64,000 nt of DNA, from the NCBI RefSeq assembly GCF_003334815.1, contig NZ_QOWO01000004.1. One strand, written 5' to 3'. The notes under the pieces are model-generated. The model was not told the DNA's origin. It made no database searches and saw nothing but the letters and a program-made list of their open reading frames with translations. The stretch's first letter is position 1. Each line of letters opens with the position of its first letter. The translations under genes and the position numbers were made by a program. This stretch comes from Escherichia coli (lineage in GTDB: Bacteria; Pseudomonadota; Gammaproteobacteria; Enterobacterales; Enterobacteriaceae). This document shows, piece after piece, positions 3,119 to 29,257 of this stretch.

Positions 3119-4347
3119 CGAAAGATCTTTCGATTACTTTTTGCGGCGTGAAGTTTCCCAACCCGTTCTGCCTCTCTTCTTCGCCGGTAGGCAACTGCTA
3201 TGAGATGTGTGCCAAAGCCTACGACACAGGTTGGGGCGGTGTGGTGTTTAAAACGATCGGCTTTTTTATCGCCAACGAAGTCTCGCCGCGTTTTGATCAT
3301 CTGGTGAAAGAAGATACCGGTTTTATCGGCTTCAAAAATATGGAGCAGATTGCTGAACATCCGTTGGAAGAGAATCTGGCCGCCCTGCGTCGGCTGAAGG
3401 AAGATTACCCGGACAAAGTATTGATCGCTTCGATCATGGGGGAAAATGAGCAGCAATGGGAGGAGCTGGCGCGCCTGGTGCAAGAAGCTGGCGCGGATAT
3501 GATCGAGTGTAACTTCTCCTGTCCGCAAATGACTTCTCATGCGATGGGTAGCGATGTCGGGCAAAGCCCGGAGCTGGTAGAAAAATATTGTCGGGCAGTG
3601 AAACGGGGTTCCACGCTGCCAATGCTGGCGAAGATGACGCCGAATATCGGTGATATGTGCGAAGTGGCGCTGGCGGCGAAGCGCGGCGGCGCAGATGGCA
3701 TTGCGGCGATTAACACCGTTAAATCCATCACCAATATCGATCTTAATCAGAAAATCGGTATGCCGATCGTTAACGGAAAATCGAGTATTTCCGGATATTC
3801 CGGTAAAGCGGTAAAACCGATCGCCCTGCGCTTCATTCAGCAAATGCGCACCCATCCAGAACTGCGCGATTTCCCAATCAGCGGTATCGGCGGCATTGAA
3901 ACCTGGGAGGATGCGGCTGAGTTTTTATTGCTCGGCGCAGCAACGTTACAGGTGACCACCGGCATCATGCAGTACGGGTATCGGATAGTGGAAGATATGG
4001 CAAGCGGGTTGTCGCATTATCTCGCCGATCAGGGATTTGATTCGCTGCAGGAGATGGTAGGTCTGGCGAATAACAATATTGTCCCGGCGGAAGATTTAGA
4101 CCGCAGTTATATTGTCTATCCCCGTATCAATCTTGATAAATGTGTTGGCTGTGGACGCTGTTATATTTCCTGTTACGACGGCGGTCACCAGGCGATGGAA
4201 TGGAGCGAGAAAACCCGCACACCGCATTGTAATACCGAGAAATGTGTGGGTTGTCTGCTTTGTGGTCACGTCTGCCCGGTGGGTTGTATTGAGCTCGGGG
4301 AAGTGAAGTTTAAGAAAGGCGAGAAAGAACACCCGGTAACGTTGTAA
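3112..4347 (+). CDS. preA: Dihydropyrimidine dehydrogenase subunit PreA (TIM-barrel plus two 4Fe-4S ferredoxin motifs)
   Basis: ORF 3106..4347; internal Met at 3112 gives 411 aa; C-terminal [11 protein letters not shown] and [12 protein letters not shown] motifs seen. Confidence 0.92.
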
Positions 4348-25275: not shown

Positions 25276-26214
25276 TTAACCCGCGAGACGCTGATATTCT
25301 TTGGCAATTTCGCTCGCCAGAATGGCGTTGTTGAACACCAGCTGGATGTTGGATTTCAGGCTGTCACCGCCGGTCAGTTCAGCAACGCGCGCCAGCAGGA
25401 ATGGCGTACTTTCTTTACCAATGACTCCCTGAGCTTCAGCTTCAGCTACCGCCTGATCGATCGCCGCATTGATAGTGTGTTCCGGCATAGCAAACTGTTC
25501 CGGGATCGGGTTCGCTACCACGAGGCCACCGTTCAGACCGCTTTGCCATTTCACCGCCATTGCACGGGCAATTTCGCTGGCGCTGTCGAGACGAATGCTG
25601 ACGTCAAACGGGCTGGTGCGGCAGAAAAACGCAGGCAGCGCTTTAGTCTGATAGCCAATTAACGGCACACCGAAGGTTTCTAAATACTCAGTGGTTAATC
25701 CTAAATCGAGAATAGATTTCGCCCCGGCACAAACAACGGTGACATTAGTATTTGCCAGTTCTTGCAAATCGGCAGAAATATCGAAGGTATGTTCCGCCCC
25801 GCGATGCACACCACCAATTCCCCCGGTGGCAAATACTTTAATTCCGGCAAGCGCCGCAATAATCATCGTTGAAGCCACAGTGGTTGCGCCATTTTTTCCG
25901 GCGGCAACAACAAAAGGTAAATCGCGACGACTAACTTTGGTCACGTTATGCCCTTCACGACCCAGTAATTCAATTTCTTCTTTGCTTAACCCCACTTTCA
26001 TCACGCCGCCAATAATGGCGATCGTGGCAGGTACAGCGCCCTGTTTACGAATAGTTTCTTCAACTTCAATTGCGGTCTGGGCATTTTGTGGGAACGGCAT
26101 CCCGTGAGAAATAATGGTCGATTCCAGCGCCACAACCGGTTTTTTGTTTTTTAAAGCGTCCTGCACTTCCGGGGAAATTTGTAATAATTCAGGGGAAATT
26201 TTTAATTCAGACAT
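25276..26214 (-). CDS. psuG: Pseudouridine-5'-phosphate glycosidase
   Basis: 312-aa ORF recognised as PsuG; overlaps psuK stop by 13 bp. Confidence 0.92.
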   Translation of the reverse strand: MSELKISPELLQISPEVQDALKNKKPVVALESTIISHGMPFPQNAQTAIEVEETIRKQGAVPATIAIIGGVMKVGLSKEEIELLGREGHNVTKVSRRDLPFVVAAGKNGATTVASTMIIAALAGIKVFATGGIGGVHRGAEHTFDISADLQELANTNVTVVCAGAKSILDLGLTTEYLETFGVPLIGYQTKALPAFFCRTSPFDVSIRLDSASEIARAMAVKWQSGLNGGLVVANPIPEQFAMPEHTINAAIDQAVAEAEAQGVIGKESTPFLLARVAELTGGDSLKSNIQLVFNNAILASEIAKEYQRLAG

Positions 26215-27143
26215 TCTGCGTTCTCCACTAACGATATAACGTTGGCAATCGATAAATCGGGGTTATTGGTGTATTCACAGGAGAGCGCCATTGACGAACA
26301 TCCCTGTGCGAAACGAACAGATTCGGCAAACGGCATTCCGTCTACCCAACACGAAGCAAGTCCCGCCATCATGGCATCGCCCGCTCCGGTAACATTAATA
26401 ACATTGGTTTTGATCGGCGCAGACCAGCCACTTTCACCGCTGATATCGCTGTAATAAACGCCGTCGCCGCCCATGCTCAATACCAGTCGGTTCAGGCCAT
26501 GTTGATGGAACCAGGCAGCAACTTTTGCCACATCTTCACGCCCTGACAGCGCAATCCCACTCAGGGTTTCCGCTTCAAGGCGGTTTGGCTTGAGAGTGTG
26601 GATCTGATTTAGACGGTCGCGCACTTTGACACATTTCCATGCCGAAACCGGATCGACAAATACGGGTACGTTGGCGGCATTATCCAGAATCCATGCCAGT
26701 GCCTCTTCACTGATATTACAGTCCGCGACAATGACCTTTGCCCTCTGAATAAATTCACCGTGCTGTGCGAGATATTCAGCTGTAATAGCGTTGCTAATAT
26801 TCATGTCATTTATAGCAACCAGCATTTCACCGGTATTATCGAGTAATGATAAATAACTCGACGTATTTTCTCCCGGCACAATCAGGCATTTATCGACATA
26901 AACGCCAGATTGATTGGTTTGCGTTAGCAGCGATTGACCATAAAAATCACTGCCTACGGCGCTCAGTAGCCAGGCTTTGTTACCCAGCAACGCCAGGTTT
27001 TGTGCAATATTGCGCCCTACTCCACCAGGCGTAAATTTTATTTTACCTGGATTTGAATCCGCATAATTTAATGATTCATGTGAATATCCGGCGACATCAA
27101 TATTCGCCGAACCTATAATTACGACATAATCCTTTTCGCGCAT
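26202..27143 (-). CDS. psuK: Pseudouridine kinase (pfkB family)
   Basis: 313-aa ORF with ribokinase-family motifs (GGVGRN, GAGDA). Confidence 0.9.
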   Translation of the reverse strand: MREKDYVVIIGSANIDVAGYSHESLNYADSNPGKIKFTPGGVGRNIAQNLALLGNKAWLLSAVGSDFYGQSLLTQTNQSGVYVDKCLIVPGENTSSYLSLLDNTGEMLVAINDMNISNAITAEYLAQHGEFIQRAKVIVADCNISEEALAWILDNAANVPVFVDPVSAWKCVKVRDRLNQIHTLKPNRLEAETLSGIALSGREDVAKVAAWFHQHGLNRLVLSMGGDGVYYSDISGESGWSAPIKTNVINVTGAGDAMMAGLASCWVDGMPFAESVRFAQGCSSMALSCEYTNNPDLSIANVISLVENAECLN

Positions 27144-27382
27144 AGCACGTCCTCTGGTAAAAAATTACCAACCCTGTCAATCCACAAGAATATAGATACT
27201 GCAAAGACGGTTTAAACATGTGTTCATATTTAAACATGTGCTCATAGTATGCATGTTTTACGTAAAGTAAATTACCGCCAGAGAGGCAAAATGGGCAGAT
27301 TTGAGCAGGCTCACAAAATGCGATTAAATGCCTGAATTACAAAAGCGAGGAATTTGTGACGGGATGCACAGAACAGAACAAT

Positions 27383-27408
27383 AAAAAAGGGCAGAAAATA
27401 ATCTGCCC
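27383..27408 (-). terminator. Rho-independent terminator downstream of fruA
   Basis: gggcagaaaataatctgccc hairpin; on the minus strand it is followed by a T6 tract. Confidence 0.6.
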
Positions 27409-27565
27409 TTGAGGAAATAACCTGAGTGTTTGATGAACGTTTGAAGTTTCTACTGAAAAATAAAACCATTTAAATTCATAAAATTACATTCACAAACCGG
27501 TCATTCTCTTTGCGCTCATCAAATGTTACAGGACAGGAAATTTCTGCCCTGTAACACACCTTTTA

Positions 27566-29257
27566 TTACGCTGCTTTCGCTACTGCGTCCACTTCCGGAC
27601 GTTTCAGGAAGGCATAGGCCAAACCCGCCACCAGCGTACCGGCAATAATTGCTACCAGGTAACCCAATACCGGCGTAATAGCGCCAGGGATCAGCAGAAC
27701 AAACAGACCACCGTGCGGTGCCATCAGTTTCGCACCAATCGCCATTGAGATTGCGCCAGTCAGCGCCCCACCCACGATACAGCACGGCAGCACACGCATC
27801 GGATCACGAGCAGCAAACGGAATTGCACCTTCCGAAATGAAGCACAGTCCCAATACCAGAGCGGCTTTGCCACCTTCCTGCTGCGCTTTGTCGAATTTGC
27901 GACGCGCCACCATTGTTGCCAGACCCATTGCCAGCGGTGGCACCATACCTGCCGCCATAATCGCCGCCATCGGGCCATAGGTTTGAGTACTCAGCAGACC
28001 CACACCGAATGCGTACGCTGCTTTGTTTACCGGACCGCCCATGTCAGTACACATCATGCCACCGAGGATCGCCCCCAGCAGAACCGCATTCGCAGTCCCC
28101 ATGGTCTGCAGCCAGTGAGTCAGCCCTTCGAGAATGCCAGCAACTGGTTTACCGATCAGGTAGATCATCGCCAGACCGACCACCAGACTGGAAATTAGCG
28201 GAATGATCAGGATCGGTTTCAGCGCCTCCATACTCTGTGGCAGTTTCAATTGCGTACTGATTAACTTCGCAATGTAACCAGCCAGGAAGCCCGCAATAAT
28301 ACCACCAATGAAGCCAGAACCGGTGCTGACCGCCAGCATACCGCCAATCAGACCCGGAGTGAGGCCCGGACGATCGGCAATGGAAAAGGCAATATAACCT
28401 GCCAGTACCGGCACCATCAGCGCAAAGGCTGAACCACCACCAATCTGCATCAGCGCCGCAGCCAACGTACCCGGCTCTTTAAACGCTTCGATACCAAAAG
28501 CAAAAGAAAGCGCGATACACAGACCACCTGCAACGACCATCGGCAGCATGTAAGAAACGCCCGTCAGCAAGTGACGGTATGCGCCTGCACTCTCTTTCTT
28601 ACTTTCAGTGGTCGCCGTTTGAGCTTTGCCCGCCGGTTCATACGGCGTTGCTTCAGCAACCGCTTTATCCAGTTCCTGCGCGGTTTTCTTCAGCGCCAGA
28701 CCGGTAGAGGTACGATACATCGGTTTACCAGCAAATTTCGCCAGATCCACTTCGATATCTGCCGCCACAATCACCAGATCCGCTGCTGCGACTTCTTCGG
28801 GAGTGATTGCATTACCCGCGCCAACAGAACCACGGGTTTCAACTTTCACCCACCAGCCACGTTTTTTCGCTTCGGTTTCAATGGCTTCAGCCGCCATAAA
28901 GGTGTGTGCTACGCCAGTCGGGCAAGCAGTCACCGCAACTACGCGTTTCGGACCGCTGGCGGCAACTGGTGCTGTCGCAGCGACCGGCGCAGTGTAAGGT
29001 TTCGCATGGCCTTTGGCTTCACTCAGGAACAGCTCAGGGTGCGCAACTGCCCGGGAAATATCGCCCAGCCAGACATTTTTACCGTTCAGCGCGCTGTCGT
29101 TCGGGATGGAATCACCGAGAACAATCGCCATTTCAGCGTCGTTCGGATTGTCGATGATTTCCAGTTTTGCTTTTCGCGCCGCCGCGCCCAGCAGGGTCTT
29201 CGCCATATAGGCGCGTGCCTGACCGAGATTAGCGTCAATAATCAGCAGCGTTTTCAT
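27566..29257 (-). CDS. fruA: PTS fructose-specific EIIB'BC component
   Basis: 563-aa ORF recognised as FruA; last gene of fruBKA. Confidence 0.95.
   Translation of the reverse strand: MKTLLIIDANLGQARAYMAKTLLGAAARKAKLEIIDNPNDAEMAIVLGDSIPNDSALNGKNVWLGDISRAVAHPELFLSEAKGHAKPYTAPVAATAPVAASGPKRVVAVTACPTGVAHTFMAAEAIETEAKKRGWWVKVETRGSVGAGNAITPEEVAAADLVIVAADIEVDLAKFAGKPMYRTSTGLALKKTAQELDKAVAEATPYEPAGKAQTATTESKKESAGAYRHLLTGVSYMLPMVVAGGLCIALSFAFGIEAFKEPGTLAAALMQIGGGSAFALMVPVLAGYIAFSIADRPGLTPGLIGGMLAVSTGSGFIGGIIAGFLAGYIAKLISTQLKLPQSMEALKPILIIPLISSLVVGLAMIYLIGKPVAGILEGLTHWLQTMGTANAVLLGAILGGMMCTDMGGPVNKAAYAFGVGLLSTQTYGPMAAIMAAGMVPPLAMGLATMVARRKFDKAQQEGGKAALVLGLCFISEGAIPFAARDPMRVLPCCIVGGALTGAISMAIGAKLMAPHGGLFVLLIPGAITPVLGYLVAIIAGTLVAGLAYAFLKRPEVDAVAKAA

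Follow-up and report, generated by a model that had tools for sequence, protein, structure and literature searches.

The 64,000-nucleotide stretch of Escherichia coli DNA analysed here (contig NZ_QOWO01000004.1 of assembly GCF_003334815.1; hereafter the window) carries a tandem 18-bp direct repeat just upstream of psuK, in the psuK-psuG-psuT operon for pseudouridine catabolism. Adaptation has hit this operon repeatedly, in mouse-gut colonisation as well as during long-term stationary phase, and we found no description of its regulation. Our analysis indicates that the two 18-bp units probably correspond to two adjacent predicted operators for a repressor acting on a conserved psuK promoter, and that this repressor is most likely YeiI, a protein in which an N-terminal helix-turn-helix (HTH) domain is fused to a PfkB domain. 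The evidence consists of the repeat itself and the conservation it shows, the constant placement of the sites with respect to conserved promoter elements, the linkage of HTH-PfkB genes to the operon, and the conservation of the pseudouridine pocket in YeiI.

The tandem repeat contains two conserved palindromes

The repeat occupies positions 27211-27246 of the window. Its promoter-proximal unit (27211-27228; window letters tttaaacatgtgttcata, also given as TTTAAACATGTGTTCATA) and its promoter-distal unit (27229-27246; window letters tttaaacatgtgctcata, also given as TTTAAACATGTGCTCATA) are identical at 17 of 18 positions. Tandem Repeats Finder (TRF) returned a period of 18, 2.0 copies, 94% matches and a score of 65, and a separate repeat search also recovered the pair (family D1). 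A preliminary description of this DNA had reported the same 17-of-18 repeat and placed it roughly 70-100 bp upstream of the psuK start codon; the repeat is exactly as described, and the measured distance to the ATG is 68-103 bp. Since this was the only tandem repeat with a period of 12-30 and at most one mismatch in the window, and since the analytic chance expectation for period 18 is about 5e-5 per window (64000 x 55 / 4^18), we do not attribute it to chance. No other occurrence of the 18-mer was present in the window at up to three mismatches (0.22 expected). Nor is the repeat a dispersed element, because the median number of matches to a 44-nt query spanning it was one per E. coli genome. 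The surrounding stretch (27100-27600) is E. coli K-12-like, with 500 of 501 bases the same as in MG1655.

We compared psuK upstream regions from eight Enterobacteriaceae lineages, namely K-12-type E. coli, B2/type-strain-type E. coli, Citrobacter koseri, C. freundii, Kluyvera, Klebsiella oxytoca, Lelliottia, and Salmonella diarizonae, in a small taxon sample gathered through PsuK homologs and 12 contig look-ups. All eight share a common layout, which reads in the psuK direction as TGTGA-N6-TCAtA (a CRP-like site), 28 nt, TTTACT (-35), 16 nt, TAyyAT (-10), a first 14-bp site (O1), 4 nt, and a second 14-bp site (O2). The layout in S. diarizonae is shifted by 1-2 nt, while the other lineages align ungapped. 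When column identity was computed on the seven gap-free lineages, leaving out S. diarizonae, the mean was 0.98 for the -35, 0.88 for O1, and 0.86 each for the CRP-like site, the -10 and O2, compared to 0.58-0.68 for the intervening and downstream sequence. In addition, the 18-bp centre-to-centre distance between O1 and O2 is invariant in the eight lineages as well as in Yersinia, Serratia, and Photorhabdus. Both units are kept at fixed spacing in the eight Enterobacteriaceae lineages; conservation across this family was a check that the preliminary description had proposed.

The predicted operators lie on the minus strand, O1 (promoter-distal) at 27231-27244 (TGAGCACATGTTTA on the psuK strand) and O2 (promoter-proximal) at 27213-27226 (TGAACACATGTTTA on the psuK strand). 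Each is central in its own 18-bp unit, and O1 begins at the final T of the -10. The cross-taxon consensus of the 14-mers on the psuK strand is TGAACA-YR-TGTTYA, an imperfect palindrome of 6-2-6 architecture in which the A.CA and TG.T columns are nearly invariant or invariant across taxa. The K-12 sites retain five of seven symmetric pairs in O2 and four of seven in O1, which has G for A at position 4. The two central bases are always pyrimidine-purine but may be CA, TG, CG, or TA. The preliminary description had singled out ACATGT as the palindromic core. This hexamer is indeed present once in each unit (27216-27221 and 27234-27239), but it lies 1 bp off the symmetry centre and is a coincidence of the K-12 sequence: elsewhere the centre is CACATG, CATGTG, CACGTG, or CATATG, with only the CA-YR-TG pattern kept, and we therefore rejected ACATGT as the functional centre.

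A position weight matrix (PWM) built from non-K-12 sites only ranked the two K-12 sites as the top two of the 64-kb window, with O2 at 21.3 bits and O1 at 19.5 bits, followed by the next best at 11.6. Together, the phylogenetic footprint and the PWM ranking support the earlier suggestion that the repeat may constitute paired operators to which a regulator of the pseudouridine operon would bind.

The sites overlap a predicted promoter that carries a recurrent adaptive mutation

The conserved hexamers define a predicted promoter on the minus strand (P2), with the -35 TTTACT at 27266-27271 and the -10 TACTAT at 27244-27249. The TAyyAT motif and the 16-nt spacer to the -35 are fixed in the seven gap-free lineages. 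From the hexamer positions only, we place the predicted transcription start 7 nt downstream of the -10, at 27237 +/-2 nt. The CRP-like site (TGTGAGCCTGCTCAAA; 27300-27315, minus strand) matches TGTGA-N6-TCACA at 9 of 10 positions and sits 28 nt upstream of the -35, a distance that is invariant in the same seven lineages. Its centre would fall at about -70.5 if the start is assumed 7 nt after the -10, or at -71.5 if it is assumed 8 nt after, which is compatible with class I spacing (-61.5, -71.5, -82.5 or similar) within the uncertainty of the assumed start. The psuK promoter is weak and probably class I CRP-dependent. Counted from the predicted start, O1 would extend from about -7 to +7 and O2 from about +12 to +25, such that together they overlap the conserved predicted -10 and +1 and cover about -7 to +25. 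This is the position expected of a repressor, and it departs from the geometry implied by the preliminary description, in which the sites lay upstream of the promoter.

Previous evolution studies bear on this promoter. A recurrent adaptive single-nucleotide polymorphism (SNP) arose in many mice during evolution in the mouse gut (MG1655 2257444 A>C), and the same change in the psuK/fruA spacer was recorded in three of four long-term stationary-phase populations, where breseq listed it as 'intergenic (-126/+297)' with C as the new base. Both offsets lead to the same position in the window (27143+126 = 27566-297 = 27269), which is A in the window and in NC_000913.3. On the psuK strand the change is T>G and turns TTTACT into TTGACT, so that the -35 regains its consensus G. 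Since this mutation falls in the conserved -35, it provides independent support for P2 as the working promoter. The authors interpret it as a mutation in the promoter with effects on psuK expression and on growth, and the accessible texts of the evolution studies do not describe -35/-10 hexamers or operators at the site.

A consensus scan nominated a different, more proximal promoter (P1) on the minus strand, with -35 TTTAAA at 27216-27211 and -10 TATATT at 27194-27189. P1 matches 9 of 12 consensus positions and its -35 lies inside the proximal unit, such that the repeat could instead hold activator sites of class I or II upstream of P1; direct repeats are indeed typical of some activators. 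We consider this quite improbable. The P1 hexamers are not conserved in other lineages, although TTTACT, the 16-nt spacer and TAyyAT are; the adaptive SNP improves the upstream -35 and not P1; and the scan was no richer in promoters than shuffled sequence (2 vs 1.9 sites). Moreover, in Yersinia, Serratia, and Photorhabdus the sites lie between the -10 and the ATG, leaving no room for a downstream promoter. We therefore rejected P1 as the psuK promoter, on the grounds that it is unconserved and that the adaptive SNP points to P2.

If transcription starts at P2, most of O1 and all of O2 would be transcribed, and the tandem palindromes are able to fold. An RNA-level element in the approximately 94-nt psuK leader, for instance a hairpin UGUUUA-AAUA-UGAACA between the units, might on that account control translation or stability. 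Several observations make this very improbable. A search of Rfam over 26500-28200 gave no family match, only a sub-threshold chance match inside fruA. What is conserved is the sequence (A.CA..TG.T is invariant) and not pairing with covariation, with the loop and the gap varying while the arms do not. Furthermore, a dedicated HTH protein co-occurs with the sites, as described below.

YeiI is the most likely regulator of psuKGT

The yeiI gene (19547-20635, plus strand) encodes a candidate repressor with an HTH_24 winged helix at residues 1-48 (Pfam, E = 2.3e-10) and a PfkB domain at residues 58-348. Its NCBIfam label is only 'sugar kinase', recent papers treat YeiI as uncharacterised, and it appears in a list of hypothetical transcription factors. 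In C. koseri, C. freundii, Kluyvera, K. oxytoca, and Lelliottia, yeiI is adjacent and convergent to psuT. Across a small sample of 11-13 loci, an HTH-PfkB gene co-occurs with the operators, standing beside the operon in five genera and leading it in Yersinia, Serratia, and Photorhabdus. No other regulator gene was common to these psu neighbourhoods; yeiL in particular is a neighbour of the operon in E. coli alone. The sampled S. diarizonae strain has, beside psuT, a yeiI-like gene truncated to 181 aa (L012:6249-6794), and the O2 of this strain is the most degenerate of the set (10.2 bits).

The structure of E. coli PsuK (EcPsuK), which is a dimer, lists 13 residues that contact pseudouridine (PMC9247573). 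YeiI keeps 12 of them (N14, D16, S30, G41, V42, N45, Y97, N143, V166, S167, K170, and D256), the sole change being M114T. On the other hand, YeiI from E. coli and five other genera (6/6) has TxxE in place of the PfkB NxxE motif, GADD in place of the GAGD anion-hole/catalytic motif, and a rewritten ATP loop. Since the pocket is kept while the catalytic motifs are altered, these comparisons suggest that YeiI is a pseudokinase-like sensor derived from an enzyme. We found nothing in the literature searched on a pseudouridine regulator, on a PsuR, or on the function of YeiI, and of the regulators considered here YeiI is the most likely to act on psuKGT.

The preliminary description had named CRP, CytR, YeiL, and YeiI as candidates. 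Of these, only the YeiI gene travels with the operators; CRP has a separate conserved site of its own (27300-27315), the region contains no good match to CytR, and YeiL is unlinked outside E. coli. The same sites could nevertheless serve another regulator, such as YeiL (CRP/FNR family), a DeoR/GlpR-type protein, a TetR/RutR-type nucleoside or pyrimidine regulator, or a global factor. The binding of YeiI is itself predicted from sequence, yeiL lies directly downstream of psuT in both E. coli alleles, the junction of the units loosely resembles a GlpR- or DeoR-type site, and the unit agrees with 10 of the 14 positions that the RutR box specifies. We regard these alternatives as unlikely. In Citrobacter, Kluyvera, Klebsiella, Lelliottia, Yersinia, Serratia, and Photorhabdus, yeiL is not beside the operon although the operators are kept, and the 6-2-6 palindrome does not fit the 5-N4/N6-5 architecture of CRP/FNR sites. 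The consensus sequences of these regulators all mismatch at 3-10 positions, and the inter-unit gap that a GlpR-type register would need is unconserved.

We also compared the units to the consensus sequences of CytR, LexA, RutR, GlpR, DeoR, PurR, FNR, CRP, NagC, ArcA, TyrR, and the Cheo box, none of which fits. The CytR/CRP nucleoside regulon does not fit either. Its pattern is the CytR octamer GTTGCATT/TTGCAA repeats with CRP sites on either side; here the best octamer match has two mismatches and lies outside the units, and there is a single CRP-like site.

HTH-bearing PsuK proteins accompany the sites outside the Enterobacteriaceae

PsuK homologs with approximately 60% identity in Yersinia, Serratia, Photorhabdus, and Pasteurellaceae bear an N-terminal winged HTH (HTH_24/HTH_11), and their operons are ordered [HTH-PfkB]-psuG(-psuT). 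Enterobacteriaceae PsuK, on the other hand, lacks the HTH, and it is the paralog YeiI that carries the HTH-PfkB architecture. Unlike YeiI, the HTH-PsuK proteins keep NxxE, GAGD and the ATP loop. Upstream of the operon in Yersinia, Serratia, and Photorhabdus we found TTTACT, 17 nt, TAAAAC, then CAAACnnATGTTTA, AAAA and CAAACAAGTGyCCA, with the two sites 18 bp apart and the pair ending a few bases before the start codon. Within each 7-kb locus, no other pair of PWM sites was spaced 17-19 bp apart.

The annotated start of HTH-PsuK in Yersinia and Serratia is probably nine codons too long (MFKNKQVSI; L015:3001-3027 and L016:3001-3027). This extension is likely untranslated because it coincides with the tandem operators, and because the Photorhabdus and YeiI proteins begin at the next Met.

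At full length, Yersinia HTH-PsuK shares 60% identity with PsuK and 51% with YeiI, while PsuK and YeiI are 39% identical to each other, as expected if a bifunctional ancestor was duplicated and the copies specialised. In Yersiniaceae and Morganellaceae, a single HTH-PsuK seems to be both enzyme and autoregulator, and a duplication in the Enterobacteriaceae apparently split this ancestor into the enzyme PsuK and the sensor-regulator YeiI. More broadly, winged HTH-PfkB proteins may form an undescribed family of enzyme-derived one-component regulators that control pseudouridine catabolism. The ancestral form would have been a bifunctional kinase and autorepressor acting on two 14-bp operators, as in Yersinia, Serratia, Photorhabdus, and Pasteurellaceae; in the Enterobacteriaceae it would have been split into PsuK, which lost the HTH, and the pseudokinase sensor-repressor YeiI, with the promoter-operator module left almost unchanged. 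We give this wider proposal about an even chance of being correct.

The predicted operators are maintained within E. coli

The fruA-psuK spacer (window 27144-27565 vs L007:2546-3000) exists in E. coli as two deeply diverged alleles, a K-12 type in approximately 4215-4233 complete genomes and a B2/type-strain type in 1200, the latter occurring in the type strain and APEC O1. A distant blastn alignment between the alleles covers query positions 15-83 only, corresponding to window 27204-27272, which holds the operators, the -10 and the -35. The 44-nt core is identical to the window in 3284 genomes and differs at one or two bases in 936. Natural variants inspected in the K-12-type allele fall at 27209, 27211, 27228, and 27274, all outside the 14-mers. 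In strain EA7 (NZ_CP069709.1), exactly one 18-bp unit has been lost, leaving a hybrid operator, which indicates that the array can slip.

EA7 also has an IS5 inserted a short way upstream of the CRP-like site (about the equivalent of window 27325). psuK itself has diverged between the two alleles as well, with 88% protein identity. In E. coli Z1323CEC0015, which has the B2-type allele, psuK is annotated as a frameshifted pseudogene and both operators are intact.

Because the K-12-type units are near-identical even at non-operator bases, and because the loss of a unit in EA7 shows the array to be slippage-prone, the repeat might be read as a recent, neutral and functionless slippage duplication. 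We find this hardly credible, since a neutral duplication is contradicted by the conservation of the sites across genera. Two sites occur at the same spacing even in other lineages where O1 and O2 are only approximately 70% alike (e.g., TGAACACATGTTTT and TGAACATGTGCTCT), the 44-nt stretch is identical in 3284 genomes, and the variants sampled avoid the 14-mers. The near-identity of the K-12-type units, non-operator bases included, is best explained as a lineage-specific overlay on this pair of operators, in which O2 would have been overwritten by a copy of O1.

A model for repression of psuK, and points that weigh against it

In the model we propose, YeiI dimers would occupy O1 and O2 and so cover the -10 together with the transcription start and the first transcribed bases. 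A dimeric HTH repressor on both sites would block the binding or escape of RNA polymerase, and an inducer, most plausibly pseudouridine or its 5'-phosphate, would free YeiI. CRP would activate this promoter with its poor -35, and the -126 mutation would strengthen the -35 and thereby raise expression.

Several findings weigh against this model. The P2 hexamers match only 8 of 12 consensus positions, and the promoter scan did not list P2, giving P1 instead. At an 18-bp centre-to-centre distance, the two dimers would not share a face of the helix, an unusual arrangement for proteins that bind cooperatively. Neither the nfo-yeiI region nor any other part of the window contains a second PWM site, leaving the model without regulon-level corroboration. 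In E. coli, yeiI lies 3.3 kb from psuT, with nupX, rihB, and yeiL between them. Tandem pairs that look similar by eye in Pasteurella testudinis and Paludibacterium scored weakly with the PWM, and we did not count them as support. In recA mutants of several clinical E. coli exposed to ciprofloxacin, PsuG and PsuK were among the most reduced proteins, with log2 changes down to -6 (PMC11039860); the psuK promoter contains no E. coli LexA box, and RecA-dependent PsuG and PsuK levels are not explained by the model. Finally, a literature search yielded no experimental transcription start for psuK (the Kim 2012 supplements hold no psuK entry) and no footprint, chromatin immunoprecipitation (ChIP), or yeiI-mutant expression data, nor any on cAMP-CRP-dependent transcription of the operon. 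Having considered these points together with the conservation, the promoter position and the gene linkage, we still judge repression through two adjacent operators, most likely by YeiI, to be the probable explanation of the repeat.

Other features of the operon and spacer

The regulated psuK-psuG-psuT operon occupies 23932-27143 on the minus strand. psuK (26202-27143), psuG (25276-26214) and psuT (23932-25182) were identified from their open reading frames (ORFs) and the RefSeq annotation of identical sequence, and NCBIfam recognises a pseudouridine kinase at 713.8 bits. The psuK spacer is flanked by fruA, which ends at 27566. The sole mismatch to MG1655 within 27100-27600 is at 27459, in the fruA-proximal portion of the spacer, where the window has A while MG1655 and the other aligned E. 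coli have G.

Three further structures lie in this region. A small hairpin, GGTAA-TTTT-TTACC (27156-27169, minus strand), directly precedes the psuK Shine-Dalgarno sequence (AGAGGA, 27150-27155). Its energy is weak (-3.5 kcal/mol), and compensatory changes across genera (GGCAA/TTGCC) affect three of the five pairs. An intrinsic-terminator-like hairpin followed by a T-run (27410-27387, minus strand) is downstream of fruA, and a palindrome with 16-nt arms lies within 27524-27556, straight after the fruA stop. The inverted repeats at 27387-27410 and 27524-27556 have a common core, AGGGCAGAAA/TTTCTGCCCT.

Implications

If our reading is correct, it would give a function to the orphan E. coli transcription factor YeiI, the product of a y-gene, and it would identify the recurrent -126 A>C change as a -35 up-mutation, explaining why selection in the gut and under starvation has repeatedly hit one base. 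It would also provide a candidate pseudouridine-responsive switch, of use as a biosensor in engineered strains that produce pseudouridine, and a clear-cut example of how a bifunctional enzyme-repressor underwent subfunctionalisation. The analysis makes directly testable hypotheses of an orphan transcription factor and a well-known adaptive SNP.

Comparison with known systems

The psuK 14-mer shares its GAAC-N4-GTTC symmetry with the Cheo box bound by LexA of Bacillus subtilis (CGAAC-N4-GTTCG). The Cheo box differs at 3 of 10 positions in K-12 and belongs to another organism and protein family, and we consider the resemblance coincidental.

Regulators derived from enzymes are known among one-component systems, including the ROK proteins NagC and Mlc (a sugar-kinase fold with an HTH), BirA (HTH_11 with a biotin ligase), and NadR. 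YeiI and the HTH-PsuK proteins resemble these in having an N-terminal HTH fused to an enzyme fold that would sense a pathway metabolite. Judged by sequence, HTH-PsuK of Yersinia, Serratia, and Photorhabdus would be bifunctional like BirA, while YeiI would be sensor-only like NagC or Mlc. The sensor domain of YeiI, unlike the ROK or ligase domains, is of the PfkB (ribokinase) family. We found no characterised HTH-PfkB regulator, and the closest solved structures are PsuK and other kinases that lack an HTH.

At the promoter, the closest parallels are classical sugar or nucleoside catabolic promoters, such as those with lac O1 or gal OE/OI, at which CRP activates and a dedicated repressor has its operators across the -10 and +1. 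Like these promoters, psuK has a CRP-like site at a fixed upstream distance, weak core hexamers, predicted palindromic operators over the presumed start and, as we infer, release by substrate. Unlike lac and gal, it has two abutting 14-bp palindromes 18 bp apart in place of distant auxiliary operators with looping, and both its regulator and its inducer are predicted. In functional terms, the psuK promoter would be an ordinary CRP-plus-repressor catabolic promoter, unsurprising in kind.

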